A stretch of 64,000 bases of DNA, taken from positions 160,001 through 224,000 of the IMG/VR virus record IMGVR_UViG_3300020045_008999; one strand, given 5' to 3'. Source of the DNA: a virus. Taxonomy: Duplodnaviria; Heunggongvirae; Uroviricota; Caudoviricetes. The translations under genes and the position numbers were made by a program. The first letter of the stretch is position 1. Each line of letters starts with the position of its first letter. Below the pieces are notes generated by a model. That model did no database searches and was not told where the DNA came from. It was given only the letters and a program-made list of their open reading frames with translations. This document shows, one piece after another, positions 6,704-24,000 of this stretch.

Positions 6704-7306
6704 TTCTAAACCATCTTCTATTTCAGTTATCAAAACCTGGAAGTTTTCTTCGTTTAATGTTAAGTCATCGTTCCAGATCTCAAAATGTCGCTGATATTTT
6801 AAAATTAGTTTAATGTGTACAATATTATCTTGTAATAGTTGTGGTAAGTTGTTACAAATACTCATATTGACAAAACCATTCACTTCAATATCTACATCAC
6901 CTGCATAGGTAGAAGTTAACTTGTTATATGCACAAATTAAATTACCACCAATTGTGTGAGGTGCACCTTCTAATGTAGATAGTTGATTATTATAGCACTG
7001 ATAATTACCACCTACTGATGATGGACCTCCTACTAATGAAGTTAAGTTGTTCCTATAACAATGAAAATTATAGCCCACCGATTGTGGAGCACCTTCTAAT
7101 GTAGATAGTTGATTAGTATCACAACAAAAATTGTCACTTACCGTACCAAACTGCAAGGGTAGTTTTTCTAGTTTCCACCTTACAAATAACATACTTCCAT
7201 CTACATCAATAGACGCATCCGGATTAATGGAATAGTTTTTTATGCGGTATTGCTTACATATTAAATCAATTTGATCCTTTTCTTCTTTACTAATTAAGTT
7301 CTTCAT
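6701..7306 (-). CDS. LRR family A protein
   Basis: Conserved caps and 22-aa repeats. Confidence 0.92.
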   Translation of the reverse strand: MKNLISKEEKDQIDLICKQYRIKNYSINPDASIDVDGSMLFVRWKLEKLPLQFGTVSDNFCCDTNQLSTLEGAPQSVGYNFHCYRNNLTSLVGGPSSVGGNYQCYNNQLSTLEGAPHTIGGNLICAYNKLTSTYAGDVDIEVNGFVNMSICNNLPQLLQDNIVHIKLILKYQRHFEIWNDDLTLNEENFQVLITEIEDGLE

Positions 7307-7318
7307 AAATTCATTCTT

Positions 7319-7858
7319 TTATTCTAATCCCTCTTCTATTTCTAATATCAAATCTTTAAAGTTATCAACATTAAGTGTCAGATCATCATTCCAAATCATA
7401 AAGTGTCTCTGGTACTTCAAGATCAGTTTAATGTGTATAATATTATCTTGTAATAATTGTGGTAATTCATTATTAGACAATTCCACGTCACCCACCAATT
7501 CAATATCTATATCCCCGGAATAGGTAGACGTTAACTTGTTACGTGAACAAATTAAATCACCTACAACCGTATGAGGTGCCCCCTCTAATGAAGTTATTTC
7601 ATTATAATAACAACTAAAATCACCACCAACGGTAATCGGCCCACCCTCTAAGGAAGTTAGGTTGTTCATATAACAATAGAAATCACCACTCACTTTATTA
7701 AATTTTATTGGAAATTCCACTAAATCAACATTGACTATTCTAACATAACCATCTACATCAATAGACCCATCCGGATTAATGCTATACTTCATGATGCTAT
7801 ATTGGGTACATATTGAATCAATTCGATCCTTTTCTTCTTTGGTAATTAAGTTCTTCAT
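7319..7858 (-). CDS. LRR family A protein (short)
   Basis: Conserved caps and 22-aa repeats. Confidence 0.92.
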   Translation of the reverse strand: MKNLITKEEKDRIDSICTQYSIMKYSINPDGSIDVDGYVRIVNVDLVEFPIKFNKVSGDFYCYMNNLTSLEGGPITVGGDFSCYYNEITSLEGAPHTVVGDLICSRNKLTSTYSGDIDIELVGDVELSNNELPQLLQDNIIHIKLILKYQRHFMIWNDDLTLNVDNFKDLILEIEEGLE

Positions 7859-7894
7859 ATGTTATATATAAAAATCTAATAACTCAAAGGGGAC

Positions 7895-8120
7895 CAGCGA
7901 ACCGATAGGTGAGCTGCATATTAAACTAAACTTTAACGTTTTTTAACATTATAAATTTGCATATTAATTTAACTTTTATTAACTTTGTGTTGGCACTTTA
8001 CACTCAAGTACTACACTATAAAGTGCCAACATAAAGATACAATATTATTTTCATATACACAAGAATTTTAACAACGTTGTTAACATTTATATTTCAGCAC
8101 TATGTCCTCGCTTCGCTCGG
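7895..8120. repeat. Intergenic element copy E1
   Basis: Top-strand hairpin 7895-7916; + promoter TTTG 7956 / TAACTTTG 7980-7987; 18-bp inverted repeat 7983-8000 / 8019-8036; - promoter TATCTTTA 8039-8032 with TTG 20 nt upstream; bottom-strand hairpin 8106-8120. Confidence 0.9.
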
Positions 8121-8225
8121 ACTAATCATTATATATATTTTGCCTCTTATAATCTAAACTTTATTTATTCTTTACGTATAGTGTAGTTGTTAACTACTGG
8201 TTTATAAGGTACCACCATGAGGATA

Positions 8226-8963
8226 CTATTCTAAACCATCTTCTATTTCGCTTATCAAAACCTGGAAGTTTTCTTCATTTAAGGTAAGATCATCATTCCA
8301 TATCTCAAAGTATCGCTGATATTTTAAAATTAGCTTAATAACAACGTTGTTATGATCCATATTAGACTTAAGGAGTGGCGGTAATGTACCACCTGGTGAA
8401 AAATGACCACTCACTTCGATATCAATATCACCAGAATAAGTGGATGTCAATTTGTTATCATAACATACAAAATCCCCGCCAATCTTAGCAGGGGAACCAT
8501 CTAAGGAGATTAACTGATTTTCATAACAGTGAAAATTATTACCGACACTAACCGGAGCACCCTTTAACGATGTTAATCTGTTAAAACCACAAACAAAACT
8601 ACCCCCAACTATATGGGGACAACCCTCTAATGAAGTCAAATTATTATGACTAATGATGAAATCACCATCGACACTAACCGGGGCACCCTCTAATGAGGTT
8701 AAAATATTATGACTAATGATGAAATCACCATCGACACTAACCGGGGCACCCTCTAATGAAGTCAAATTATTAAACGAACATGTAAATCTACCAGATATTG
8801 CACCAAATTTCAATGGCAACTTATCTAATTTTTCATTATATAAATTTATACTATCATCTACATCAATAGACCCATCCGGATTAATGGAATAGTTTTTTAT
8901 ACTGTATTGATCACATATTAAATCAATTTGATCCTTTTCTTCTTTAGATATTAAGTTCTTCAT
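8226..8963 (-). CDS. LRR family A protein
   Basis: Conserved caps; recent internal duplication TSLEGAPVSVDGDFIISHN x2. Confidence 0.92.
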   Translation of the reverse strand: MKNLISKEEKDQIDLICDQYSIKNYSINPDGSIDVDDSINLYNEKLDKLPLKFGAISGRFTCSFNNLTSLEGAPVSVDGDFIISHNILTSLEGAPVSVDGDFIISHNNLTSLEGCPHIVGGSFVCGFNRLTSLKGAPVSVGNNFHCYENQLISLDGSPAKIGGDFVCYDNKLTSTYSGDIDIEVSGHFSPGGTLPPLLKSNMDHNNVVIKLILKYQRYFEIWNDDLTLNEENFQVLISEIEDGLE

Positions 8964-8974
8964 AAAGCTATATA

Positions 8975-9577
8975 TTATTCTAGGCCATCTTCAATTTCTA
9001 ATATCAAATCTTTAAAGTTATCTACGTTCAATGTTAAGTCATCATTCCAGATCTCAAAATGTCGCTGATATTTTAAAATTAGTTTAATGTGTCTAATATT
9101 ATCTTGTAATAATTGTGGTAATAGATTACCAGATAAATCCACATCAGCATCCACTTCGATATCAGTATCACCGGAATATGTAGAAGTCAGGTAGTTACGT
9201 AAACAAGTTAAATCACCACCAACCGTATGAGGTGCCCCCTCTAATGAAGTTATTTCATTATAATAACAATAAAAATTACCACCTACATAAGTAGGCGAAC
9301 CTACTAATGATGTCAATTTGTTTTCATAACATTCAAAATATCCACCAACCGTTGTAGGTGCACCATCTAATGAAGTCAGTAGATTTAAACCACAATTAAA
9401 AAACCCGGTAACTTTACCAAATCGCAATGGTATTTTAGTTAATTTTGTATTATGTAAATTAACATCATCATCTACATCAATAGTACCATCCGGGTTAATG
9501 CTATACTTCATGATGCTATATTGGGTGCATATTGAATCAATTCGATCTTTTTCTTCTTTACTAATTAAATTCTTCAT
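8975..9577 (-). CDS. LRR family A protein
   Basis: Conserved caps and 22-aa repeats. Confidence 0.92.
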   Translation of the reverse strand: MKNLISKEEKDRIDSICTQYSIMKYSINPDGTIDVDDDVNLHNTKLTKIPLRFGKVTGFFNCGLNLLTSLDGAPTTVGGYFECYENKLTSLVGSPTYVGGNFYCYYNEITSLEGAPHTVGGDLTCLRNYLTSTYSGDTDIEVDADVDLSGNLLPQLLQDNIRHIKLILKYQRHFEIWNDDLTLNVDNFKDLILEIEDGLE

Positions 9578-9588
9578 AAAACTATATA

Positions 9589-10317
9589 TTATTCTAGGCC
9601 GTCTTCGATTTCTACTATCAAATCCTGGAAGTTATCTTCATTGAGTGTAAGGTCTTCGTTCCAGATAAAGAAATGTCTCTGGTACTTTAAAATTAGTTTA
9701 ATATGGTATATATTGTCTACAAATAGAACAGGCAAGCATTGACTATCGAAGTATCCCTCACCACTTATTTCTATATCTACATCACCGGCATAAGTAGAAG
9801 CCAAATTATTATCTGTACAAATTAAATCACCGCCAATGGTAACCGGAGCACCCTCTAGGGTAGTTAATTGATTTTCGTCACAATAAAAACTACCAACAAC
9901 GTTAACTGGTCCACCCACTAACGTAGTTAATTGATTCCTTGTACATGAAAAGTCACCACCCACCAATTGTGGCACCCCTTCAAAACTAGTTAATTGATTA
10001 TCGTCACAATAAAAATCACCGCCAATGGTAACCGGCCCACCCACTAACGTAGCTAATTGATTATCATCACAATAAAAAAACCCACCCACCGTAGTAGGTG
10101 AGTCCTCTAGTGATGTCAGTTTGTTTGAAACACAATCGAAATTACCAAATACTTTATTAAAATTTAATGGAATTTTTTCCAAACCGGTCCTCCTTAAACT
10201 CACATCACCATCAACATCAATAGATCCATCTGAGTTAATCGTATAATTCTTAATTTTATATTTTATACATATTAAATCGATCTGGTCCTTTTCCTCTTTA
10301 CTAATTAAGTTCTTCAT
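9589..10317 (-). CDS. LRR family A protein
   Basis: Conserved caps; shares an identical 110-bp block with gene 371..1414. Confidence 0.92.
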   Translation of the reverse strand: MKNLISKEEKDQIDLICIKYKIKNYTINSDGSIDVDGDVSLRRTGLEKIPLNFNKVFGNFDCVSNKLTSLEDSPTTVGGFFYCDDNQLATLVGGPVTIGGDFYCDDNQLTSFEGVPQLVGGDFSCTRNQLTTLVGGPVNVVGSFYCDENQLTTLEGAPVTIGGDLICTDNNLASTYAGDVDIEISGEGYFDSQCLPVLFVDNIYHIKLILKYQRHFFIWNEDLTLNEDNFQDLIVEIEDGLE

Positions 10318-10341
10318 ATGTTAGCGGTGTTTGTCTATATA

Positions 10342-11079
10342 TTATTCTAGCCCGTCGTCAATTTCTAATATTAAATCATTGAAGTTATCAATATTCAATG
10401 ATAAGTCATCATTCCAGATCTCAAAGTGTCTCTGGTATTTTAAAATCAATTTGATGTGGTGTATGTTAGCCATAAGCTGATGAGGTAACCTATTATCACC
10501 AAATTCAAGTTCACTATCCTCACTATCCACTTCTATGTCAATATCACCTGAGTATGTAGATGTCAATTTATTCGCACTACAATTAAAATTGCCACTTATA
10601 GTGATAGGCAAACCCACCATTGTAGTCAATATATTAAAATTACAGTTAAAATCACCACCAACAGAAATAGGCGATCCCTCTAATGACGTCAGCCGATTCT
10701 CAATACAATCAAACTGACCACCCACCGTATGAGGTCCACCCACTAAGGTAGATAAATCATTGTCACCGCAATCAAAATCACCGCCCACTGTATGTGGTGC
10801 GCCCTCTAATGAAGTTATTTGATTAAAGTGGCAGTAGAAATCACCACCAACTGTATGAGGAGATCCTTCCAATGAAGTTATTTGATTAAACGAGCATATG
10901 AAATGACCCGAAACTTTACCAAATTTCAATGGCAATTGTATTAATTTTTTACTCGAAATAAACACATCCCCATCAACATCAACAGATCCATTCGAATTAA
11001 TCGAATAATTTTCAATTTGATAATCTTTACATATTAAATCGATCTGGTCCTTTTCACCTTTGCTAATTAAATTTTTCAT
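10342..11079 (-). CDS. LRR family A protein
   Basis: Conserved caps and 22-aa repeats. Confidence 0.92.
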   Translation of the reverse strand: MKNLISKGEKDQIDLICKDYQIENYSINSNGSVDVDGDVFISSKKLIQLPLKFGKVSGHFICSFNQITSLEGSPHTVGGDFYCHFNQITSLEGAPHTVGGDFDCGDNDLSTLVGGPHTVGGQFDCIENRLTSLEGSPISVGGDFNCNFNILTTMVGLPITISGNFNCSANKLTSTYSGDIDIEVDSEDSELEFGDNRLPHQLMANIHHIKLILKYQRHFEIWNDDLSLNIDNFNDLILEIDDGLE

Positions 11080-11114
11080 AAGCTATATATAAAAATTAGA
11101 TCCATCAAAGCGGC

Positions 11115-11350
11115 CAGCGAACCGATAGGTGAGCTGCATATTATATTAAACTTTAACAGTTTTAATTTGTAAATGTTAGATATATTCATTAACTTTGTGT
11201 TGGTACCTTACACTCAAGTACTACACTATAAAGTGCCAATATAAAGATACAAAATATAGTAATACAAAGCAAGTCTTTAATGTAAAAGTTATGAACGATG
11301 TTAACGAAGTGTCTTATCAACGATGTTATAAACAATCGCTCACTCAGACA
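11115..11350. repeat. Intergenic element copy E2
   Basis: Hairpin 11115-11136 identical to E1; TTTG 11166 / TAACTTTG 11190-11197; inverted repeat 11193-11210 / 11229-11246; opposing promoter; gttatcaac-like repeats; truncated right end cgctcact 11337-11344. Confidence 0.9.
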
Positions 11351-11962
11351 CTACTGTAGCCCCTCTTCTATTTCAGAAATCAAATTCTGGAAGTTTTCTT
11401 CATTTAATGTAAGATCATCATTCCATATAAAGAAATACCTCTGGTACTTTAATATTAGTTTAGTAACAACGTTATTATGTTCCATATTAGACTTAAGGAG
11501 TGGCGGTAATGTATCACCTGGACAAAAAAATCCTAAAACTTCAATATCCACATCACCAGAATAAGTTGAGGTTAATTTGTTACCATTGCACTCAAAATCA
11601 CCACCAACAGTAACCGGGCCACCCACAAGTGAAGTCAATTTATTTCCATGACAGTGGTAATCACCACCAACAGTATGTGGACCACCATCTAATGAAGTCA
11701 ACTGATTTTGACCACATCTAAAATCACCACCAACAGTATGTGGACCGTCCTCTAATGTAGTCAAGAAGTTCGATGTACAAGAAAATCTACCAGAAATCTT
11801 ACCAAATTTCAATGGGAACTTAACTAAGTTCTCACTATATAAATTCACATTGCCATCCACATCAATCGATCCATCTGAGTTGATTGTATAATTCTCGATG
11901 CCGTATTGATCACATATTAAATCGATCTGGTCCTTTTCACCTTTGCTAATTAAATTTTTCAT
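11351..11962 (-). CDS. LRR family A protein
   Basis: Conserved caps and 22-aa repeats. Confidence 0.92.
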   Translation of the reverse strand: MKNLISKGEKDQIDLICDQYGIENYTINSDGSIDVDGNVNLYSENLVKFPLKFGKISGRFSCTSNFLTTLEDGPHTVGGDFRCGQNQLTSLDGGPHTVGGDYHCHGNKLTSLVGGPVTVGGDFECNGNKLTSTYSGDVDIEVLGFFCPGDTLPPLLKSNMEHNNVVTKLILKYQRYFFIWNDDLTLNEENFQNLISEIEEGLQ

Positions 11963-11972
11963 AAGCTATATA

Positions 11973-12515
11973 TTATTCTAATCCATCTTCAATTTCAGCT
12001 ATCAAATCAGCAAAGTTATCTGCATTCAAAGTTAAGTCATCGTTCCAGATTTCAAAATGCCTCTGGAACTTCAAGATTAGTTTAATATGATCCAGGTTAT
12101 CCAATAATTGCTGTGGTAGTAGACTGTTGTCGGCACATCTTACAATTCCGGATACGTCAATATCCGTATCACCTGTGTAAGTAGAAGTTAAATTATTATA
12201 ACTACAATAGAAATCACCACCAACCGTATGTGGGGATCCCTCTAATGAAGTTAAAACATTGTACCCACATCTAAAATCACCACCAACTGTAGCCGGGCAA
12301 CCGTCTAATGAAGTCAAGTAATTACCAAGGCAACTGAAATTACCAGTCACTTTTCCAAATTTCAAAGGTATAACAGATATTTCTTCTTCGTGTAATGCTA
12401 CATCACCATTCACATCAACTGAACCATCTGAGTTGATCGAATAGTTCTCGATGTCGTATTGTTTACATATTAAATCAATTTGATCCTTTTCTTCTTTAGA
12501 TATTAAATTCTTCAT
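11973..12515 (-). CDS. LRR family A protein (short)
   Basis: Conserved caps and 22-aa repeats. Confidence 0.92.
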   Translation of the reverse strand: MKNLISKEEKDQIDLICKQYDIENYSINSDGSVDVNGDVALHEEEISVIPLKFGKVTGNFSCLGNYLTSLDGCPATVGGDFRCGYNVLTSLEGSPHTVGGDFYCSYNNLTSTYTGDTDIDVSGIVRCADNSLLPQQLLDNLDHIKLILKFQRHFEIWNDDLTLNADNFADLIAEIEDGLE

Positions 12516-12526
12516 AAAACTATATA

Positions 12527-13135
12527 TTATTTCAACCCCTCTTCAATTTCTGCTATCAAATTCAGGAAGTTTTCCTCATTCAAAGATAGATCATCGTTCC
12601 AGATTTCAAAATGTCTCTGGTACTTCAAAATTAGTTTAATATGATCCATATGATCAATAACTAGCTGAGGTAACTGTAAAAATGTGTCACCTGAGTATAA
12701 ATCGCCAGCGAATTCAATATCAATATCCCCAGAATAGGTAGACGTAATGTTATTATTAGTACATTTTAAATCACCACCAATAATACTTGGACTACATTCC
12801 AACGTAGTTAAATTGTTATAACTACAATAAAAATCACCAACTACCGTATGTGGTCCACCCTCCAATGAAGTTAATTCATTATAATAACAATTAAAATCAC
12901 CACCAATTATAGTAGGCGATCCCACCAATGTAGTCAAATGATTAAACGAACATGAGAAATGACCAGAAACTTTACCAAATTTTAATGGTAATTGTATTAA
13001 TTTTTTCCTCGAAATAAACACATCCCCATCAACATCAATAGATCCATCCGAGTTAATTTTATATTTCTTTATATTGTATAGATAGCATATCGAATCGATA
13101 CGATCCTTTTCTTCTTTGTTAATTAAGTTCTTCAT
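12527..13135 (-). CDS. LRR family A protein
   Basis: Conserved caps and 22-aa repeats. Confidence 0.92.
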   Translation of the reverse strand: MKNLINKEEKDRIDSICYLYNIKKYKINSDGSIDVDGDVFISRKKLIQLPLKFGKVSGHFSCSFNHLTTLVGSPTIIGGDFNCYYNELTSLEGGPHTVVGDFYCSYNNLTTLECSPSIIGGDLKCTNNNITSTYSGDIDIEFAGDLYSGDTFLQLPQLVIDHMDHIKLILKYQRHFEIWNDDLSLNEENFLNLIAEIEEGLK

Positions 13136-13146
13136 GTAGCTATATA

Positions 13147-13707
13147 TTATTCTAATCCCTCTTTAATTTCTGCTATCAAATCATTGAAGTTTTCTTCGTT
13201 CAATGTTAGATCCTCATTCCAGATCATAAATGGTCGCTGGTACTTCAGAATCAATTTAATATGACCCAGGTTATCCACCAATTGCTGAGGTAGGTGGTTA
13301 GAATTGACACTTGTGACATCGGAAATGCATCTTATAATACCGGATACCTCAATATCAGTATCACCAGCGTAAGTAGAAGTTAGAACATTATACGTGATAT
13401 CAAAATAACCCCCAACATATGCCGGGCATCCCACCAATGATGTCAGCATATTATCCTCACAATCAAAATCACCACCAACATTCTTAGGGGAACCTACCAG
13501 TGATTTCAAGCCATTCGAATCACATCGGAAAACACCAGATACATTATTGAATTTTACTGGAATTACGATTAAGCCGCTATCCGCTAAATTGACATCCCCC
13601 TTTACATCAATCGATCCATCCGAGTTAATCGAATAATTCTTGATGCCAAATTCTTCACATATCAAATCAATTTGATCCTTTTCTTCTTTACTAATTAAGT
13701 TCTTCAT
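13147..13707 (-). CDS. LRR family A protein (short)
   Basis: Conserved caps and 22-aa repeats. Confidence 0.92.
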   Translation of the reverse strand: MKNLISKEEKDQIDLICEEFGIKNYSINSDGSIDVKGDVNLADSGLIVIPVKFNNVSGVFRCDSNGLKSLVGSPKNVGGDFDCEDNMLTSLVGCPAYVGGYFDITYNVLTSTYAGDTDIEVSGIIRCISDVTSVNSNHLPQQLVDNLGHIKLILKYQRPFMIWNEDLTLNEENFNDLIAEIKEGLE

Positions 13708-13717
13708 GGCCTATATA

Positions 13718-14569
13718 TTATTCTAACCCCTCGTTAATTTCTGCTATCAAATCATTGAAATTTTCTTCGTTCAGACTAAGATCTTCATTCCAGATCATAA
13801 AATGCCGCTGGTACTTTAAAATTAATACTATGTGTTCTATATTTTCATTAAACAGTTGAGGCAGTGTACTATTTGTAAAGCATACGTCAGCCCTCAACTC
13901 AATGTCTATATCACCAGAATATGTAGATGTCAACAGGTTTTTTTTACAATCGAAATAACCACAAGTAGCAGTTGGGGCACCCTCTAAAGATGTCAATTTA
14001 TTATGACCACATAGCAAATCACCGCCAACCCACTCAGGACCCCCCACTAATGAAGTCAACTGATTGTGACTACAATAAAAATTACCTTTCACTGTGGTAG
14101 GTGAGCCATGTAATGTAGTCAACATATTAAAGAAGCAGCTATAGCCTTTTCCGATCGTAGTAGGCCCATCCACTAATGAAGTCAAACGATTATCATCACA
14201 GTTAAAATGCCCACCAACCTCAACCGGACCCCCCACTAATGAAGTCAAATAATTATGACCACAGTCAAAATATCCACTCACCGTAGTAGGACAACCCACT
14301 AATGAAGTCAATTGATTTTTGACACAATCGAAACCACCCACCGTAGTAGGACAACCCACTAATGAAGTCAATTGATTATCATTACAAATAAAATTCCCAG
14401 ATACCGTATTAAATTTTATTGGCAACTCTTTTAATTTTTGCTCATGTAAGTTTACATCACCATCAACATCAATCGACCCATCCGAGTTGATAGTATAATT
14501 TTCGATTCGGTGGTCATTACATATCTCATCGATACGATCCTTTTCTTCTTTGGTAATTAAATTCTTCAT
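13718..14569 (-). CDS. LRR family A protein (long)
   Basis: Conserved caps; near-identical tandem NQLTSLVGCPTTV units. Confidence 0.92.
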   Translation of the reverse strand: MKNLITKEEKDRIDEICNDHRIENYTINSDGSIDVDGDVNLHEQKLKELPIKFNTVSGNFICNDNQLTSLVGCPTTVGGFDCVKNQLTSLVGCPTTVSGYFDCGHNYLTSLVGGPVEVGGHFNCDDNRLTSLVDGPTTIGKGYSCFFNMLTTLHGSPTTVKGNFYCSHNQLTSLVGGPEWVGGDLLCGHNKLTSLEGAPTATCGYFDCKKNLLTSTYSGDIDIELRADVCFTNSTLPQLFNENIEHIVLILKYQRHFMIWNEDLSLNEENFNDLIAEINEGLE

Positions 14570-14579
14570 GGTCTATATA

Positions 14580-15120
14580 TTATTCTAAGCCGTCTTTAAT
14601 ATCTGCAATCAGATTGTTAAAGTTTTCTTCATTCAATGTTAGATCATCATTCCAGATCATGAAATGCCGCTGGTACTTTAAAATTAATAAGATGTGCTCT
14701 ATATTATCATTAAACAGTTGAGGTAACGGATTACTTACAATATTAACATTCTCACCTATTTCAATATCAATATCCATTAAATAGGTGGTGGTTATATTAT
14801 TAAAGGAACAATCGAAACTACCCAAAATAGTAACCGGACATCCATTCAATGAAGTTAGACTATTATTGTTACAATAAAAATACCCACCCACCGTAGTAGG
14901 TGAGCCCTCCAGAGATGTCAATTTGTTTAAAACACAATTGAAATTACCAGACACAATGTTGAATCTTACCGGAAATTTAGTTATTTTTTTTATCAAATAA
15001 ATCTACATTGCCGTGCACGTCAATTGATCCATCTGAGTTAATTGAATAGTTTTTAATATTTTCATTAGAGCATATTCTATCGATACGATCCTTTTCTTCT
15101 TTGCTTATTAAGTTCTTCAT
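14580..15120 (-). pseudogene. LRR family A gene frameshifted in an A8 homopolymer
   Basis: MKNLISKEEKDRID starts at 15120; span is 541 nt (3n+1); A8 run (T8 at 14984-14991) restores the frame into ORF 14580..14996 if A7. Confidence 0.85.
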
Positions 15121-15131
15121 ATAAATATTTA

Positions 15132-15734
15132 CTATTCCAACCCTTCTTCAATTTCCGATATCAAATCCTTGAAGTTTTTTTTATTTAAGGTAAGATCATC
15201 ATTCCAAATATAAAAATGTCGCTGGTACTTTAAGATCAATTTGATGTGATTTATATTTGTGATAAGTGATTTATATATTTTTTTACCTGGGTAAAAATCG
15301 CCACCAAAATCAATATCGATATCACCAGAATACGTAGAACGGATAGGTGTATCCTCAAAAAATAAATCACCACCAATGGTATGAGGTGCTCCCTCTAATG
15401 AAGTTAATTCAATATTACCACTGCAAACAAAATCACCATTAACCACATTCGGGGCACCATTTAGTGATGTTAGTCTATTATCACTACACTTAAAATTACC
15501 ACCCACCGTAGTAGGACCACCCTCTAATGATGTCAATAGATTAAAATTACATCCAAAATCACCAGTTATCTTACCGAACTTCAATGGCAGCTTAACTATA
15601 TCTATATTAAATATACTGACATCACCATCCACATCAACTGAACCATCCGAGTTGATCGAATAATTCACGATTCCGTATTGATCACATATTAAATCAATAC
15701 GATCCTTTTCCTCTTTACTAATTAAGTTCTTCAT
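15132..15734 (-). CDS. LRR family A protein
   Basis: ORF track 15132..15764; family-conserved start at 15734. Confidence 0.92.
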   Translation of the reverse strand: MKNLISKEEKDRIDLICDQYGIVNYSINSDGSVDVDGDVSIFNIDIVKLPLKFGKITGDFGCNFNLLTSLEGGPTTVGGNFKCSDNRLTSLNGAPNVVNGDFVCSGNIELTSLEGAPHTIGGDLFFEDTPIRSTYSGDIDIDFGGDFYPGKKIYKSLITNINHIKLILKYQRHFYIWNDDLTLNKKNFKDLISEIEEGLE

Positions 15735-15851
15735 ATATCTATATATAAAATCCAAATCACTCAAAGGTGGCCGACTTACGTAGTTATAATCGCAGTGAGC
15801 GGCATAATTCTACCCATCTTGTTCCAATCTTTATGTTAGCGTAGGTATGAG

Positions 15852-16419
15852 TTATTCAAGTATTTGTGAAATTATCCACGTTCTATACAATTTTGCTAGA
15901 TCATACGATTCCGGATTTGCTAATTGGTCCATGCGTAATCCCAGCCTAAATAATTCGATAATCGTATCTATATCATTATTGATCCCGGAAAAACATCCAT
16001 CAATGTTGGTGGTAATTCCGTCAAATGAATGAATGAATGTGAAAATCAATATCACAAAAATAATTACCACCAACTTTACTTGGACCGAATTCCAATGATG
16101 TTAGTTTATTTTCACAGCAATAAAAACACTCACCGATAATACTTGGACCGAATTCCAATGATGTTAATTCATTTTCACAACACAAAAAATCACCAGTAAC
16201 TTCAATAGGACAACCGTATAATGTACTGAGCTTATTTTGTACACATATAAAGTCACCAATAACCTTATTAAACCGCAATGGTAGCTCAGTTAAATTTTGA
16301 CCACATAGATCAACCCCATCATAAGCATCAATTGTACCATCGTCATTAATGTCGTAGCCGGAAATTGAATACTTCTGACAGATATCCTCGATTTTATTAT
16401 TTCGTTCAGAATTATCCAT
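15852..16419 (-). pseudogene. Diverged LRR gene (family B tail) frameshifted at a (CATT)4 microsatellite
   Basis: ORF 16021..16419 and ORF 15852..16073 join in frame if one 4-bp unit at 16024-16039 is removed (568-4=564 nt); restored C-terminus LYRTWIISQILE. Confidence 0.8.
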
Positions 16420-16465
16420 AATTGTATTTTTCCTAAGTATTGAATATAAAAAGAAACTCGTAATG

Positions 16466-17206
16466 CTATTTATTTAATTGTTTAGTGTATTTTTTCTTTA
16501 TCATTTGTTTTGTTAGCTTTTCCTTATCACCATCTTCAACAATTCTAATTATTATACTATCGATACCAACGTCCTTGATCATCTTATCTAAGGTAACAGA
16601 ATGACCAGATTTTAAATTGTTTAGTAAGCCATCATTTTTACTAGTATATACTATAAATTTTTTATTTACCTGATTGGTTATGACAACAGAATAACGCTTG
16701 CTTTGTGTGAATAAATGAGATGGATATAGGTATAACTTTTCATGCAATTGTTTTAATGACTTATATCCCAAAACATCTTTCATAATATTGATCGACTTAT
16801 GTACTTCGGTATCCTCTGCTCCTTTGATAAATAGATTGTATCTTTCGTTGGGATTATTATTATCGTTAAATTCAATATTGGTTAGATCCTGGACCATAGA
16901 ATATTCTCTTATAAGCCTTTCTTCATCAGCGCGATCAGATGACAACATTTTGACAATTAGTCGACTACCAGAGTCCAGAATTCCCTTTATTAGTTTATTC
17001 TTTCTTACATTTATATTAGTTGCCTTTTGTAGATCTAATATGTGGAATGCAATCCTCCCCTTTATATTACTAGTTGATCCAATATAAAAATCATTTATCA
17101 TATACACCCCAGATGTATACGTATCTTCAATATCCGCAAACCATTTTATGTTATCAGAAACATAATTTATCAATAGTTTTTTCTTATCAACCTCAGTTTT
17201 TGTCAT
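16466..17206 (-). CDS. GIY-YIG family endonuclease
   Basis: SGVYMINDFYIGSTSNIKGRIAFH motif plus downstream E and N (EERLIREY...LTN). Confidence 0.75.
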   Translation of the reverse strand: MTKTEVDKKKLLINYVSDNIKWFADIEDTYTSGVYMINDFYIGSTSNIKGRIAFHILDLQKATNINVRKNKLIKGILDSGSRLIVKMLSSDRADEERLIREYSMVQDLTNIEFNDNNNPNERYNLFIKGAEDTEVHKSINIMKDVLGYKSLKQLHEKLYLYPSHLFTQSKRYSVVITNQVNKKFIVYTSKNDGLLNNLKSGHSVTLDKMIKDVGIDSIIIRIVEDGDKEKLTKQMIKKKYTKQLNK

Positions 17207-17485
17207 TTGTATATAAATTAATCAATTATATACAAATGATATGTGAAAGTTTAGTGATGTGTAAAATAAATAATCAAATAAATACTAGTGAATATTTAAC
17301 ATATTAAATTTGTATAAGAACTTTAAATTTCTTAACTTTGTGTTGGCACCTTATACTCTACTACTAGACTATAGTGTGCCAACATAAAGATACTAATTAA
17401 TACAATACAAAACAAGACTCATAGACAAAAGTTATCAACAATCGTTCACTGCGTTTATAAATACGTTAGCGACACCACTCTGATA

Positions 17486-18088
17486 CTATTCTAATCCGTC
17501 TTCAATTTCTGCTATCAAATTCTGGAAGTTTTCCTCATTTAAAGTTAAGTCATCATTCCAGATGAAGAAATGTCTTTGGTACTTCAAGATCAATTTAATG
17601 TGATGTACATTATTCTTCAATTGCTGTGGTAGGATGTTTAAGCTACATGTTACAATTCCGGATACGTCAATATCCGTATCACCTGAGTAAGTAGAAGTTA
17701 ATTTATTATTACTACAATATAAATTACTACCAACCGATTGTGGTGCCCCCACTAATGAAGTTAAACCATTGTACCCACATCTGAAATTCCCACCAACAGA
17801 TGTAGGTGATCCTTCCAATGACGTCAACATATTAATACTACAATAAAAATCATCACCAACTGTATGAGGGGATCCCTCTAAGGTAGTTAATATGTTCATT
17901 GAACAAGAAAATTTACCGGTCACATTACCAAATCGCAATGGTAATTGTTTTAAGCGTTTATGTTCTAAATCAACATCTCCCTCAACGTCAATGGATCCAT
18001 CAGCATTAATAGTGTAATGCCTAATATGAGATCTTCTACAAATCGAATCAATACGGTTCTTTTCCTCTATACTAATTAAGTTTTTCAT
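17486..18088 (-). CDS. LRR family A protein
   Basis: Conserved caps and 22-aa repeats. Confidence 0.92.
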   Translation of the reverse strand: MKNLISIEEKNRIDSICRRSHIRHYTINADGSIDVEGDVDLEHKRLKQLPLRFGNVTGKFSCSMNILTTLEGSPHTVGDDFYCSINMLTSLEGSPTSVGGNFRCGYNGLTSLVGAPQSVGSNLYCSNNKLTSTYSGDTDIDVSGIVTCSLNILPQQLKNNVHHIKLILKYQRHFFIWNDDLTLNEENFQNLIAEIEDGLE

Positions 18089-18211
18089 AAGCTATATATA
18101 CTATTATTATTTTTTCAATTTTTACCAAAACAGCGAATGGAAATATAATATATACTATGTAGGAATGATGAAGTTTATTAAATATTCTAGATTAACAACT
18201 CTATCACGCTC

Positions 18212-18445
18212 AGTAGATTATCGGATACCAGCTTTTATCCCAGGGATAATGATCCAGCTGCCCATATAAAGATCGAAAAGTGATAGAACAATCGAAAATG
18301 TTAAATATACCAAACCCAAGACTACACATCGAATAGATACAACAGTGTTATACCTATCGAAGAATATATGTTAATTCATAGTAGATTATCGGAAACCAGC
18401 TTTTATCCCAGGGATAATGATCCAGCTGCCCATATAAAGATCGAA
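18212..18445. repeat. 66-bp direct repeat x2 with internal palindrome
   Basis: 18212-18277 and 18380-18445 differ at one base; contain TTATCCC-A-GGGATAA nested in CAGCT...AGCTG. Confidence 0.9.
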
Positions 18446-18741
18446 CCGCAATTAATTATTCAAGATAATATACCATTCAAATATCAACGGATGTCATAAT
18501 ACAAATTAAAACATATTTAAATACCCAACCTGGTGAAATGTCAAAAAAAATGACATACATACCGGGAATTACCAGTTAGAACAATCCTAATGATTTAAAT
18601 ATGAATATAATTGAGCTATTTAAATACAGTGGATTTAAGCCACTTAAATTTTAAAATGGTGTCCTAGTATTAAAAAAATATAATAAAGCCTTATATTAGG
18701 CAACATTGAAGGGATTTAATGAATTTACTTATATAAGACAG

Positions 18742-18830
18742 CAGCGAACGAAGTGAGCTGTATAATTATACAAAATTTTAACAACGTTGTTATCAACAAT
18801 CGCTCACTACGTTTATAACTACATTAGCGA
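18742..18830. repeat. Intergenic element copy E4 lacking the promoter/IR core
   Basis: Left hairpin cagcgaacgaagtgagctg 18742-18760 followed closely by right-side ttaacaacgttgttatcaacaatcgctcact. Confidence 0.8.
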
Positions 18831-18844
18831 CCACCATCTAGATA

Positions 18845-19585
18845 TTATTCTAATCCTTCTTCAATTTCGGATATCAAATCCTTGAAGTTTTCTTCATTCA
18901 ATGTCAGATCATCATTCCATATAAAGAAATATCTCTGGTACTTAAAGATCATTCTGAAATCAACCATGTGTTCACCATCACCGTCTTTACCAAATTGTAC
19001 CGGCATGTACTTTGTGTCATAATATAAAGTGCCCTTTAATTCAATATCATCAGCACAATACGTGGATGATATTGAATTACCTTCACAATGATAACCACCT
19101 CCAATCATAGTAGGTGATCCTATTAAGTTACTTAGTTGGTTATCGGCACAACAAAAATTTCCATTAACACTATTTGGACCACCTTCCAATGAAGTTAAAA
19201 TGTTCCTATGACAATAAAAATCCACATTAATGATATCCGGTGATCCCTTTAACGAAGTTAATTGGTTATAAGAACAAAAGAAACTATTTCGGACTAACTT
19301 AGGGCCCCAGTCTAAATTAACCAAGTTATTAGACTGTCCGTAAAATGTCCCACCAACCTCATGCGGACATCCTTTCAATGAAGTTAACTGATTTCCATTG
19401 CAATAAAAATCACCAGATACTTTATTAAAGCTCAATGGTAAATCAGTTAATTCCTTTTTGGTTAAATTAACATCACCATCAACGTCAATAGTCCCATCTG
19501 AGTTTATCGAGTAATTAAATATATTATATTTCTTACAAATTGAATCAATACGATCCTTTTCCTCTTTAGATATTAAATTCTTCAC
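18845..19585 (-). CDS. LRR family A protein (first of array, GTG start)
   Basis: Conserved caps and 22-aa repeats. Confidence 0.9.
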   Translation of the reverse strand: MKNLISKEEKDRIDSICKKYNIFNYSINSDGTIDVDGDVNLTKKELTDLPLSFNKVSGDFYCNGNQLTSLKGCPHEVGGTFYGQSNNLVNLDWGPKLVRNSFFCSYNQLTSLKGSPDIINVDFYCHRNILTSLEGGPNSVNGNFCCADNQLSNLIGSPTMIGGGYHCEGNSISSTYCADDIELKGTLYYDTKYMPVQFGKDGDGEHMVDFRMIFKYQRYFFIWNDDLTLNEENFKDLISEIEEGLE

Positions 19586-19636
19586 ATGTTTATCTTTATT
19601 TCAATTATATATAAAATTCAGATCCCTCAAAGCGGC

Positions 19637-19874
19637 CAGCGAACGCAGTGAGCTGCATATTAACATAGGTAAATTTTAACGTAGATTTTAACAGTTTTAA
19701 TTTGTATATGTCCTCAACTTTTACTACCTTTATGTTGGCACACTATAGTGTAGTACCAGAGTATAAGGTGCCAATATAAAGATACAAAATATAGTAATAC
19801 AAGTCAAGTGTTTTCTGTAAAAGTTATCAACGATGTTATCAACGATGTTATAAACAATCGCTCACTGCGTTCGC
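19637..19874. repeat. Intergenic element copy E5 with inverted core
   Basis: Perfect 15-bp terminal inverted repeat GCGAACGCAGTGAGC (19639-19653) / GCTCACTGCGTTCGC (19860-19874); IR arms 19728-19741 / 19768-19781; three 12-bp gttatcaacgat-type repeats 19823-19858. Confidence 0.9.
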
Positions 19875-19909
19875 GGCACCATCTAAATCCCCATTAGATC
19901 TATTCGAAT

Positions 19910-20596
19910 TTAATTTAATGGAATTTTCAACCAGGTCATGTTATTATACATTTCCAATTCACCGGATCCACCAGTGTACTCATTTACTAAATGATGAAGT
20001 GCCTTGGAATTGATCTGGATACGCATATAGACAGTATTGAACTCTGTGAAAGTTTCTTTGGTTGATGCCCACACAAATCCCTTAACGAATTCCTCCAGGT
20101 AAATAGTTGGAATTCTAGGTACTTCTAACTCATATTTATTCACCTGGAATCCATAATCCATCAAAGACCAAACCAAATGGAATGAAGTGATCAAACAAGT
20201 TCGGATATTCACATCCCGGACACCCTTCTTAATGACATATCCAGAATTGATAGCAGCACTTATATCACTCATAATAGGATCCGTAGTTTTCAAATGCAAA
20301 TTATATAACTTAGTAGTTATTTTAATATGACCACATGCCCATATCGATCCAAGGTAATAGGCCCGGGTAGAATCCATCTTATCAATTCGAAAGTATTCGG
20401 AATCCAAGCTTATAGTGCGGGAATCAGAAACAGTCTTACACTGAATCGAACAGTATTTTCTAGGCCTGGTCAATTCAAATCTATTGTCATATTTAAATGA
20501 CTTTTTACAATTGGAACAGATGCAATCCACCCATAATAATTCTTTATTTTTGACCGGGCGGCCTGGGCGTTTCTTATTACTCATAGTTGAATTCAT
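19910..20596 (-). CDS. Degenerate LAGLIDADG-like protein with N-terminal AT-hook-like motif and Cys4 zinc finger
   Basis: KRPGRPVK; CSNC...YCSIQC; AYYLGSIWACGHI and FVKGFVWAS resemble the two LAGLIDADG helices without the acidic residues. Confidence 0.55.
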   Translation of the reverse strand: MNSTMSNKKRPGRPVKNKELLWVDCICSNCKKSFKYDNRFELTRPRKYCSIQCKTVSDSRTISLDSEYFRIDKMDSTRAYYLGSIWACGHIKITTKLYNLHLKTTDPIMSDISAAINSGYVIKKGVRDVNIRTCLITSFHLVWSLMDYGFQVNKYELEVPRIPTIYLEEFVKGFVWASTKETFTEFNTVYMRIQINSKALHHLVNEYTGGSGELEMYNNMTWLKIPLN

Positions 20597-20622
20597 AGTT
20601 AATTTAATATGTTTAGTGATAT

Positions 20623-20658
20623 TAAATTAATTTTTAGGGTTGTCTAAAAATTAATTTA
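20623..20658. promoter_or_regulatory. 15-bp inverted repeat upstream of the LAGLIDADG-like gene
   Basis: taaattaatttttag / ctaaaaattaattta with a 6-nt loop. Confidence 0.55.
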
Positions 20659-20894
20659 GTTAAGTATAAATAATTTGTTTTTGAATCTAAACTTTTTAAT
20701 AGGTCAAATCCTACTTAGTTTAAGACTCTAATATTATTTCCATATTATCCCATATTATTATACATCACCTATCTATATATTCCGAAAACAAAACACATAA
20801 TTAATATACTCACTTTTCATGTACATTATCACACATATCTATACATTTCGACATATTTAAATGATTTGATTTATTTAATAAAACACATAATTAA

Positions 20895-20913
20895 TTGCTC
20901 ACTGCGTTCGCAA
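20895..20913 (-). repeat. Isolated G.A/GCA hairpin of the element family
   Basis: Bottom strand ttgc-ga-ac-GCA-gt-ga-gcaa. Confidence 0.75.
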
Positions 20914-21003
20914 CCCCATAGAATTGTATTTAAATCATCTTTCAGGTTGTTTTCAGGTTGATTTCATGTATGTATTATCTTTCATCTTTTATATCATTAA
21001 ATA

Positions 21004-21034
21004 GTTGTTATATTAAAAAGATTATATACCTTTG
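21004..21034 (+). promoter_or_regulatory. Bacteroidota sigma promoter
   Basis: GTTG-N19-TACCTTTG at the head of the plus-strand gene block. Confidence 0.7.
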
Positions 21035-24000
21035 GGATCTAAAAACAAACCATAGAAGATTGTCAGCGTTGAATATAATATGAAAATATGAAAATACCAT
21101 TATTAATAAAAGCATTTACTAGTCCATTTGTTCGTCCTATGATAATTTTTTATTTTGGAAAAACTGCCATAGGGACTCCTTACTTCTTTCCCCGCAATTG
21201 GGTAAAATATACCAAGCAAGACTGTATCGACCAAGCTACTAAATCTATGGGAAATTCTAATACAAATAGAACTTTTGATCAGTGGATTGATCATTATAAA
21301 AATTATTCCAAGGCAGTTCCAAAGCGGATAGGTTTTGATTTTGTGGATCTTGGGTGGAAGACGAAGTGGAGTAATACGGATTTTAGGCATGAGTTCAATC
21401 CACGTTTGAGTTTTGTATTTTTCGGATATCAAATAGCTGTAACCTTTGTACCATTGGATGATTGTCACTATTGGGAATGTTTTTTATATTATAATTTCGC
21501 TACAGATAAGACAAAGAGTCGTCAAGAGAGAATTATCCAAAGTAGAAATGAGTTTCCATGTGTTTGGACTAGACATAGTGATAATGGTAAAGAGACTATA
21601 AATTATTGGGATAAAATATTAAAAAAATAAAAATAAAAATACCATTTAATTTTATAATTATGAAACTAAAAGATTTAAAAGGCCCCGATAGTATATTCAC
21701 ATATAAGGGTGAGAGTACTAGTATTTACGATAAGACTTTTTAGTTATGGAATTTATGGATGACTTATTTGATTTTACGGATGAACCGTTGGTACCTATTG
21801 TGATGTCTAAGGATGCATTTGTGACTAAGACTAGGAAGTTATTATCTCATATTGATACTCTTTATGGTCAGGGTTGGCAGACTCGGGCATTGATTGAATC
21901 GGAATATCCGGATCAAAGTGTTTGTGATTTGTGTAAGGGTTGTGGCACATTTACTTTGGATGGTGTGGATGGTGTTGCCGCGGATTGTGTTGTAGATTAC
22001 GAAGATGGTCAGTGTGTGACTAGGTATTTTGATTCGGAAGAATTTGTGTTGAGTATAGAGGAATGTTTGGATGATCTTTACGAACTGCTGTTGGTTGACA
22101 CTATTAATTAAATAAAAGTATTTGAATATGGGACAACTGACAAGATTGATTGAATTATCATCGGATGACAACCAAGTGGTTGTGGGTAGATCTTATACGT
22201 GTATGGATTGTGATTGGTGTGGATTGGTATCGGAATGTGATTTTGATACTGAGTATGATGAATTCAAGGACATAGATAGAAGGTATCCAATATGTCCGGA
22301 GTGCGGTGGTGGATTAGAATGTTGATCTTGATAATAAATAACTAAATATAATATGGAAAATACTAAGACTGCTGCTATACGTAGTTTAACTGATGATGAA
22401 TTATTGAGTAATGCTTTGCGGTTTGCTTTTGACAAATGTCCTGATGAAAGTGGGGCTTTGGTTGATTTTCAGAAATACAAGAGTACCTTTTACGGGTGTA
22501 TGAAATGGATGCGTGATAACTATGAGCCGACCTGTGATGGGTTTCTGGGCGAGGTTGAATCGAAATAAATTATAAATTAGACTAGATTATGAAAAACACA
22601 AACCTACCATTGGATTCTTGTACTAAGGATTTCAAATACACTTTAAGGAGTAAAGAGGGTAAAATCATATTACAAGAAATCGTAACATTTGGTTCCATAG
22701 AAGCCGTTTCCGAAAAATTGGAAAGGTAACCCAATGATACTTATGGCGATTTCTGATTACAAGCACAATATGATATCAAATAATTTTGATATCTTGGTTG
22801 ATGAAAATTTAGAGTTTGACATATAATAGGTGCCTCCGACACATTTCGGATAATCCGCAAGCTTTTGCCTAGGGTAATTATACACTTATATAGGGTTGTG
22901 GGTGTTTAACTAAAGTATAAAATGAAAAAAGAATTAGAGGAAATTGCTGAAAAAGTACAAAAATTAGTTGATTATGAAGTTTCTAAAATTGAAAGAAAGG
23001 AAACTAAATGGAAAAATCAATATGAAAGTGTGATGAGTGAATTAGAAAGTGAATTGAAATATACTAATGAACTTATTGTGGACTCAAACGAAAATGGGTT
23101 AACTATTAGTTCGGTTGAGGCAGAGGGTTACAAGAGATGTTTAATCACGATGATAAATCGATTTCGCGATTTTGAAAAATACGAGTAACTAATAGCGAAT
23201 CATTATGAGAAATAAAATAACCAGAAAGGATAAGAAGAAGTTACGTGCTATAATGTTGTGTCATACTGGTAATGTGACGTGTCGTAAATCAACCTATAGT
23301 AAGGAAGAATGGTTAAAGATAAAAATCATGTATAGGGTTTGGCTGTCTTGTTTCACTATGGATGACAGAAGAATGGCCAATACCGTACGATGAATTACTT
23401 AATGAATTACAAATTATGAATTAACCCAACTATTGTATAGATAAAAATAGCAGTAGTTACAATACAGATTTTATTATGAAAGCACTATGCTTAATTATTT
23501 GGATGCTTATTTCGATGTTATTCGTATGTAGTATAATAGGACTAGTAATGTTTATACCCAAGGATAGCTGGCAGAATTACTCAAATACCCCATCTACTTG
23601 GTATTCGTTTGGTGAAAGGTTATTGGCGAGTGTTGTTGAATAAATACGAAATAAATACATATTATGAGTCCATCAAAAAATAAGGATTTGATCCGGGTTT
23701 TCTATTGAGGACATACTGTTTTAGATATGAGAGAGACATTTGAAGATTACACGAAACGATTACAAGAACGAAGAACCGAGGATGGGTATAGGTATACTGA
23801 CGAAGATTTCGAAAGGCACAAAGAGTACATTAAGATTTGTTATGAAACGGATTTAAGTGTTTATAAGTGTTTGGAATTTATGTGGTTCCAAGAGTATTCT
23901 AAATAGGGCTTTTCACTATAAAAAACCAAATAATATGCAAATTAAAGAGGAATTGATTGCTCGTATTAAATTAGAATTGGCTGAGGTATGCCAGTCTTAT

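Follow-up and report, generated by a model that had tools for sequence, protein, structure and literature searches.

One-strand G.A mini-hairpins at the ends of double-promoter cassettes in a large phage genome and their relatives in viruses, bacteria and archaea

A 64,000-nucleotide stretch of phage DNA (the window; bases 160001-224000 of IMG/VR virus record IMGVR_UViG_3300020045_008999) carries a group of short, imperfect palindromes in which a stem interrupted by tandem GA/GA mismatches is capped by a three- or four-base G..A loop. The whole record is 596,785 bp long with 31.9% G+C and is rated 98% complete; positions below are those of the window unless marked as genome. These hairpins form the outer ends of a repeated cassette of ~240 bp with two facing promoters, which lies between the operons of an array of leucine-rich-repeat (LRR)-like genes, and the left (L) and right (R) ends of the cassette fold on opposite strands. 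The hairpins belong to a widespread class with an unexpectedly wide distribution, and are akin to two known kinds, mini-hairpin DNA and PeSL/REP-like repeats. The reading ranked first here, and held tentatively, is that they work at the level of DNA as one-strand mini-hairpins, acting as boundaries and recombination junctions.

An earlier, sequence-only reading of the window had listed seven hairpins, four on the top strand and three on the bottom, and all of them are present exactly as written (Table 1). The genome-wide motif search that it had proposed was run on both strands of the 596,785 bp with a strict pattern in which an inner stem of 2-3 bp closes a G..A loop of 3-4 bases, each arm carries GA next to that stem, and an outer stem of at least 3 bp encloses the whole. 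This gave seven matches, exactly those already noted; in 30 first-order Markov genomes the mean was 1.1 and no genome exceeded 4. All seven are found within 13 kb, or 2.2% of the genome length. To the left of the window there are two diverged copies, one at genome 150655 with a G.T wobble in its outer stem and one at genome 157764 in which the second GA has become GT. A looser pattern, GANNGNANNGA, was rejected as evidence; its excess (44 observed vs. 20 expected) derives from a coding repeat, GATCGWATYGA, located in the conserved N-terminal part of the array genes.

The fold itself is under selection. It had been proposed that the stems co-vary while the GA/GA mismatch and the G..A loop are kept, and the alignment of the nine copies bears this out, with 98% of stem cells paired and four of the seven pairs changed on both sides. 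None of 500 shuffles of this alignment matched the covariation score, and sliding the stem partners by 1-3 columns cuts pairing to 17-38% of cells. The hairpin at 8104-8122 differs from the L-ends at four stem positions, each altered on both sides. The G-A/G-A step is retained in eight of nine copies, and all nine keep the C-G closure and the G and A that bound the loop. The loops are C-GATA-G in four copies, C-GCA-G in three and C-GAA-G in two.

The bases around the GA steps agree with 5'-Y-GA-R-3', the context of sheared tandem G.A pairs. The suggested GNA-type loop rule also stands, as every copy conforms to the published rule for DNA mini-hairpins, C-GNA-G or C-GNNA-G (PMC13037366). The asymmetry between the strands is likewise real, with the complementary strand offering nothing except T/C mismatches.

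The hairpins occur within the LRR-like gene array. Minus-strand paralogues in tandem array fill the window from 1 to 20600, each with 21-residue leucine-rich-type repeats flanked by a conserved N- and C-terminus. The array genes are separated by ~10 nt and a few longer intergenic stretches interrupt them. The family extends to the left beyond the window, the whole span being approximately genome 129-181 kb, and from 21088 onward the genes switch to the plus strand. The longer intergenic stretches at 7859-8225, 11080-11350, 17207-17485 and 19586-19909, together with genome 157729-157958, hold copies of one element at 75-84% identity, and these cassettes separate the operons of the array.

Each cassette is laid out as a hairpin, boxes resembling binding sites, a promoter, a 40-nt inverted repeat, an opposing promoter and a second hairpin. 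The plus-strand promoter, TTTG-N20-TAACTTTG, lies to the left of the core and the minus-strand promoter, CTTG-N20-TATCTTTA, to its right; both are taken here to be Bacteroidota-type -33/-7 promoters. Across four cassettes with hairpin-type ends at their borders, the promoter boxes are conserved and the 20-nt spacers vary. The two predicted promoters face each other with their start points in the arms of the central repeat, and the G.A hairpins are located ~110 nt outside each predicted start point as the outer ends. Homology between L- and R-ends continues for ~20 nt past the hairpin to give terminal inverted repeats of ~45 nt, hence the whole element is an imperfect palindrome of ~240 bp. The distance from an L-end to the first ATG of its downstream operon is 37-60 nt, and R-ends come after stop codons. 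A consensus promoter and terminator scan lists none of the hairpins, its terminator-like matches falling in coding repeats, and an Rfam search of window positions 7000-22000 at a permissive threshold returned nothing at the hairpins.

Table 1. Hairpins, degenerate ends, cassette centres and boxes in the window (c1, c2, c3 and c5 are cassette copies)
Feature	Position	Strand	Description
L-end hairpin, c1	7895-7916	+	cagc-GA-acc-GATA-ggt-GA-gctg; 37 nt upstream of ATG 7858 (minus-strand operon)
Centre, c1	7956-8063	.	plus promoter 7956-7987 facing minus promoter 8063-8032; 40-nt inverted repeat 7990-8030 between them
Perfect 16-bp palindrome TTAACAACGTTGTTAA	8068-8083	.	between minus-strand promoter and R-end; again at 18778-18793
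R-end hairpin, c1	8104-8122	-	gtcc-GA-gc-GAA-gc-GA-ggac; ~100 nt past stop of gene 8226-8963
L-end hairpin, c2	11115-11136	+	same sequence as the copy at 7895
Centre, c2	11166-11273	.	same promoter pair and core as c1
12-mers GTTATCAACGAT, related to TTAACAACGTTGTTAA	11288, 11313, 17431, 18789, 19823, 19835
Truncated R-end, c2	11337-11345	-	only the 3' arm GAGTGAGCG remains; deletion between short AGTG repeats
Degenerate L-end, long variant	15769-15802	+	upstream of ATG 15734; 12-nt loop insert, first GA lost
Centre, c3	17309-17416	.	same promoter pair and core as c1; L-end hairpin lost
Degenerate R-end, c3, long variant	17442-17472	-	12-nt loop insert
Half hairpin CAGCGAA	18131-18137	+	upstream of ATG 18088; L-end homology stops here
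L-type hairpin	18742-18760	+	cagc-GA-ac-GAA-gt-GA-gctg
Degenerate R-end, long variant	18800-18830	-	just past stop of gene 18845-19585
L-end hairpin, c5	19637-19655	+	cagc-GA-ac-GCA-gt-GA-gctg
Centre, c5	19701-19808	.	same promoter pair and core as c1; 26-nt inner core segment inverted relative to c1-c3
R-end hairpin, c5	19859-19875	-	cgc-GA-ac-GCA-gt-GA-gcg; 35 nt past stop of the 228-aa endonuclease-like gene
Second R-end copy	20895-20913	-	ttgc-GA-ac-GCA-gt-GA-gcaa; divergent region before plus-strand genes

The right half of the cassettes alone carries, near the R-end, either one TTAACAACGTTGTTAA palindrome or two to three GTTATCAACGAT boxes, for which the chance expectations are 0.04 and 0.66, respectively, and from their sequence these are likely to be binding sites of a regulator. 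In the core of c5, the segment 19742-19767 is flipped relative to 7997-8022, 11207-11232 and 17350-17375, while the arms and flanks keep their orientation, as seen from direct and reverse BLAST matches. Inversion of a small hairpin loop, or switching between the facing promoters, could account for this 26-nt flip.

The architecture of the cassette also bears on what the orientation of the hairpins can say. The sequence-only reading described left ends as folding on the top strand and right ends on the bottom; the pattern is correct, but it does not count as an independent signal because the hairpins are the inverted ends of one palindromic element. In each case the G.A form lies on the template strand for transcription leaving the cassette, which is the sense strand for transcription entering it.

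Folding on one strand only had invited comparison with the promoters of phage N4. On this reading, a phage RNA polymerase would recognise the hairpin extruded on the template strand and start ~11 nt downstream. The stable fold is indeed on the template strand and precedes the first ATG of five minus-strand operons by 37-60 nt (7895, 11115, 19637, genome 150655 and genome 157764), the hairpin at 20895-20913 is 175 nt upstream of the plus-strand genes at 21088, and N4 promoters use template-strand C-GNA-G loops (PMC4496689). The analogy fails on several counts, however. The stems consist of 4 + 2-3 bp split by two mismatches, three copies have C at the loop centre, and four have a 4-nt loop. A search of the 98%-complete genome with the N4 virion RNA polymerase fragment mini-vRNAP gave nothing at E<=1, although very remote homologues could escape it, and there was no match to PF00940, PF00562 or PF00623, with the PF00940 positive control also giving no signal. 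The giant open reading frames (ORFs) of 2181, 2184 and 1773 aa (genome 355233-361778, 486251-492805 and 414270-419591) have neither a PHROG family nor a sequence relative in the PDB. Two to three of the nine copies would drive antisense RNA, with the R-ends at 8104 and 19859 pointing into gene 3' ends, host-type promoters already serve the same operons, and the orientation is random in other phages. An N4-type promoter role is thus highly improbable.

The most serious competitor to a DNA-level role is a polar RNA terminator or insulator. Each half-cassette would then be a PeSL-like unit, a stem-loop with a promoter on the same strand, in which the G.A form of the RNA stops or attenuates inbound transcripts and the U/C-mismatched reverse lets cassette transcripts pass, such that the G.A mismatches make the terminator one-directional. 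With RNA parameters folding favours the G.A strand, at -2.8 to -9.8 kcal/mol compared to -1.9 to -6.8 kcal/mol for the complementary strand. The L-ends are in the mirror position for the plus-strand promoter, the motif adjoins canonical terminators in other phages, for example at two loci, and PeSL stem-loops in the same position have been shown to terminate transcription (PMC2839356). Conversely, none of the nine copies is followed by a T-run, so that no U-tract would follow the stem in RNA, and the folding energies are low for an intrinsic terminator. The loops GATA (GAUA in RNA), GCTA (GCUA) and the triloops are not stable RNA loop types; they differ from the GNRA loops that RNA favours and fit the DNA rule GCGNAGC / GCGNNAGC. 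Elsewhere, in unrelated phages and bacteria, the stable strand is antisense as often as sense, and the L-ends of this phage would meet only antisense transcripts that have crossed whole operons. Polar termination is therefore possible but rather doubtful. Plain intrinsic (rho-independent) termination was rejected as a candidate on the missing T-runs.

Selection of the mismatch itself is seen in other viruses. When IMG/VR was scanned with the L-end and its flank, one match was obtained, in an unrelated 40-kb contig where an identical tip sits intergenically on a different 8-bp basal stem. An early IMG/VR scan with only 14 fixed bases yielded mostly chance matches and is usable only after sorting by loop and stem; once re-sorted, GNA makes up 11 of 34 three-base loops, against ~2 expected, and the GNA cases have extended stems. 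The tip AGCGAACGNAGTGAGCT (AGC-GA-AC-GNA-GT-GA-GCT) occurs in 57 IMG/VR stretches. In 21 of these the stem continues for at least two more complementary bases per side (~3.6 expected), and several more matches continue through a second tandem G.A step. Watson-Crick controls of the same composition, AGCGAACGNAGTTCGCT and AGCTCACGNAGTGAGCT, gave 14 and 5 matches, of which 1 and 0 were extended. The G.A-mismatched tip is 4-11 times commoner than its Watson-Crick equivalents, which argues that the mismatched version is specifically favoured. This is sequence-level evidence for selection on the G.A mismatches themselves, beyond hairpin potential. The loops vary from GAA, GCA and GATA in the phage to GAA, GCA, GGA, GTA and GCTA elsewhere.

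The extended viral matches are intergenic in 17 of 22 cases. Relative to neighbouring genes the stable strand is sense at ~7 loci and antisense at 6, the rest being convergent or divergent. Mismatches in the basal stems, compared as G.T vs. A.C to indicate the strand that folds, are few, with only five single and two tandem cases; both tandem cases are GA/GA.

The rarity of the Watson-Crick versions also speaks against the palindromes being read as duplex DNA. In that case a transposase acting on the ends of a miniature inverted-repeat transposable element (MITE), or a dimeric regulator acting on an operator, would bind the double-stranded palindrome and the hairpin potential would be incidental. 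Such a reading gains from the position of the hairpins within ~45-nt terminal inverted repeats of a 240-bp element missing from a related phage, from deletion derivatives that retain the ends (e.g. 18742-18830), and from the palindromic and direct-repeat boxes near R-ends, which resemble protein-binding sites. Yet a dimer would meet unlike half-sites (..GA.. and ..TC..) at the same two positions while the stem neighbours change in pairs, and symmetric Watson-Crick versions are the rarer form across viral contigs by the factor given above. Neither a transposase gene nor a clear target-site duplication was found in the phage; around the cassette, a by-eye search for such duplications yielded nothing convincing. 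Duplex recognition of this kind is decidedly improbable. One TnpB-related gene is present, a 544-aa ORF at genome 123570-125204 (+) with a Cas12f/TnpB-type zinc-ribbon domain (PF07282, E 6e-11). It is a single copy located 35 kb left of the hairpin region, with no visible link to the hairpins.

The tip extends well beyond viruses. Species-representative bacterial and archaeal genomes contain at least 120 stretches matching the 19-mer CAGCGAACGNAGTGAGCTG, compared to ~17 expected. Among the matches listed, the 19-mer is multi-copy in single genomes of Jeotgalibacillus, Fretibacterium, Rubrivivax/Ideonella/Caldimonas, Hellea, Udaeobacter, Limnocylindria and a Pacearchaeote, and in each lineage it is the tip of a different, longer imperfect palindrome. 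At low-GC bacterial loci it is intergenic in 37 of 40 cases, with flanking genes arranged -/- (11), +/+ (8), +/- (7) and -/+ (5). Each of five hairpin-rich genomes has between 18 and 112 occurrences of the 13-nt core YGARCGNAGYGAR, whereas the reversed control occurs 3-22 times. In an Ideonella metagenome-assembled genome, cores overlap at 9-nt spacing as (YGAR-CGNAG)n, e.g. at C1:178866-178896 and C3:184846-184876, and the units therefore have a 9-nt period. Judged by its sequence, such a run can form G.A steps with itself in whatever register it pairs. No Rfam family was found at the hairpin sites of 17 bacterial loci at the gathering threshold, and a full-text literature search for 15-mers of the tip found no paper.

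A broader proposal can be built on this distribution, although it is unlikely as a whole and is offered as speculation. On this view, a so far undescribed class of self-folding DNA elements would owe its activity to the 13-nt core Y-GA-R-C-GNA-G-Y-GA-R, equal to 1.5 units of the 9-nt period, and would move between, or recur in, phages, giant viruses, bacteria and archaea. A common factor would recognise these elements in single-stranded or extruded DNA. In this phage they would have been recruited to the two ends of the double-promoter cassette, which would be switchable and would partition, and help to reshuffle, a repertoire of ~70 LRR genes.

Within the phage, several rearrangements also map to the hairpins. 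The R-ends at 19859-19875 and 20895-20913 are direct repeats that bracket the 228-aa ORF and its upstream region. Approximately 600 bp of other DNA lies between the half hairpin at 18131-18137 and the complete hairpin at 18742, which together with the R-end 40 nt away at 18800-18830 makes up a mini-cassette without promoters. A 12-nt insert between inner stem and loop is common to the three long-variant ends, all of which have lost the first GA, and these ends fold no better than shuffles. The direct R-end repeats, the split hairpin, the AGTG deletion of c2, the shared insert and the mini-cassette mean that the hairpins coincide with several rearrangement boundaries.

Additional repeats were observed near these sites. 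Two 66-nt direct repeats (18212-18277 and 18380-18445; 98.5% identical) lie within the 600-bp insert that splits an L-end, each holding the palindrome ATCCCAGGGAT and a -7-like box resembling that of the minus-strand cassette promoter. Around nine tandem copies of a 16-nt unit, ACTTACACAGTAAACA in minus-strand reading, occupy genome ~150,900-151,080 in a 550-bp gap upstream of a diverged L-end. Two ORFs next to cassettes have weak nuclease-like features. The 246-aa ORF at 16466-17206 (-), the gene directly downstream of cassette c3, narrowly misses the Pfam cut-off for GIY-YIG (E 1.7e-4). The 228-aa ORF at 19910-20596 (-) has an N-terminal CxxC...CxxC and a basic stretch with a weak match to a PHROG "endonuclease" (E 3e-6), and no match in Pfam, NCBIfam or PDB. 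A tRNA scan found none.

Hairpins on opposite strands of an AT-rich palindromic element with repeated 12-mer boxes could also be expected of a signal for replication priming or unwinding, in which each hairpin would direct outward primer synthesis once the cassette melts. Mini-hairpins of the same type are known at the G4, St-1 and alpha3 origins and in ssiA (PMC13037366). Over the whole genome the cumulative GC skew has its maximum at ~420 kb and its minimum at ~175-180 kb, inside the hairpin region. The minimum is weak evidence, since it coincides with the switch in gene orientation, at the right edge of the LRR array, and with a strongly skewed coding array. At least five cassette copies within one gene array, no primase linked to the site, and the dispersal of the motif as a multi-copy repeat in bacterial chromosomes are all unlike an origin, and this role is improbable.

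Searches of IMG/VR with an LRR protein and with a profile returned one weak locus and then none. Tail-sheath relatives exist at 52-68% identity; the exact hairpin core is absent from five large ones, and the sole relative with the LRR family shows no cassette homology around its LRR genes. Two metagenome scans, with a 22-mer of the L-end and with the junction of promoter and core, found nothing. As the cassette is missing from the only LRR-carrying relative, it appears to be an element gained in this lineage.

A DNA-level boundary and junction is ranked first because it covers the DNA-type loop rules, the independence of orientation, the multi-copy mosaic behaviour and the breakpoints. Upon duplex opening or under negative supercoiling, the purine-rich, stable strand of each imperfect palindrome would fold, with two sheared G.A pairs below a C-GNA-G or C-GNNA-G loop. 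The folded ends may then be preferred junctions for joining, duplicating or losing modules, making the hairpins structure-specific boundary elements comparable to the T4-type PeSL stem-loops and the REP-like repeats of bacteria. Three points are inferred: activity as DNA and not as RNA, a phage or host factor as the reader, and recombination or insulation as the selected function. The sequence-only reading is borne out in its structural part, whereas the protein that it proposed, acting on single-stranded or extruded DNA, finds no support here.

Several observations weigh against this reading. As homologous pieces of a single repeated cassette, the nine copies represent no more than ~3-4 independent versions of the sequence. 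With nearest-neighbour DNA parameters the folding energies are only -1.2 to -4.2 kcal/mol, and the advantage of the purine strand is 0.4-0.8 kcal/mol with mostly insignificant z-scores, albeit from a class of models said not to capture mini-hairpin stability; conventional thermodynamic models miss that of GCGNAGC and GCGNNAGC (PMC13037366). The geometry within the phage suits RNA as well, with the stable form being sense for transcripts entering from either side and R-ends following stops. No enzyme that would read the hairpins was found in the phage, which has no Y1/HUH transposase in a PF01797 search. In bacteria, three of five hairpin-rich genomes have Y1-type genes, and in the two examined no hairpin lies within 1.5 kb of such a gene. 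The breakpoints could reflect the general instability of palindromes and not a selected function in recombination. Lastly, the collections searched hold no close relative of the cassette, and gain or loss between strains at the hairpins is not visible.

The interest of the hairpins depends in part on which molecule is read. To our knowledge, very few uses of one-strand non-B DNA hairpins are documented, namely N4 promoters, the primase signals of single-stranded phages and plasmids, integron attC sites and the ends of IS200/IS605 elements. If read as DNA, the hairpins point to an unrecognised structure-specific activity common to very different hosts. If read as RNA, they would amount to a terminator that works in one direction through the asymmetry of its mismatches, a principle of use in design. 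In the phage itself, they mark the borders of regulatory cassettes that organise a very large array of variable-repeat genes.

Several known systems resemble parts of this arrangement. The early promoters of N4 (PMC4496689) have a small C-GNA-G hairpin on the template strand only, upstream of genes; however, their 5-7-bp stems are uninterrupted, the loop centre must be a purine, there are three of them at the genome end that is injected, and a dedicated polymerase of 3,500 aa serves them, none of which was found in the phage. IS200/IS605-type and PATE ends have both hairpins on the same strand, whereas the phage ends fold on opposite strands as inverted repeats. Plasmid RSF1010 carries two signals on opposite strands of an inverted repeat, beside iterons and an AT-rich stretch (PMC13037366). 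Its ssiA/ssiB signals, like the origins of G4, St-1 and alpha3, contain C-GAA-G-type mini-hairpins that are read on single-stranded DNA (PMC13037366). Such initiation signals are single-copy origin elements with a known primase, while the phage has many copies in a gene array and no primase link was found.

REP and BIME repeats, associated with RAYT (Y1 HUH) transposases, are short, intergenic imperfect palindromes which are multi-copy, occur in either orientation, and often form mosaics or inverted pairs. The 19-mer and 13-nt core behave in this way in Jeotgalibacillus, Fretibacterium and Ideonella/Rubrivivax, among others, while the phage copies belong to one duplicated cassette. REPs are lineage-specific with a 5' GTAG, in contrast to a tip that is identical across phyla, domains and viruses. 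The link to a RAYT is also missing, as the phage has no PF01797 match and no examined Y1 gene is flanked by a hairpin.

The cassette as a whole resembles the promoter-early stem-loop (PeSL) cassettes of T4-type phages (Arbiol et al. 2010, PMC2839356), which are similarly repeated and intergenic and combine a host-type promoter with a stem-loop past the upstream stop. In each, the genes of the region are dispensable and shuffled, and rearrangements map to the cassettes. A PeSL is a single directional unit whose perfect hairpin has a stem of G/C runs, whereas the phage cassette is a palindromic double with convergent predicted promoters and stem-loops made strand-asymmetric by G.A mismatches.

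At the level of the hairpin itself, the nearest counterparts are the DNA mini-hairpins GCGNAGC / GCGNNAGC of Hirao and colleagues (PMC13037366), which are likewise closed by C-G, have a G..A loop of three or four bases and fold only on the purine-rich strand. The 13-nt core is not described as a natural repeat in that review (PMC13037366). The hairpin at 8104-8122 contains the mini-hairpin sequence GCGAAGC itself. Unlike the reviewed mini-hairpins, the phage copies sit on a further stem that is joined through the tandem G.A / A.G step, giving the 13-nt core.

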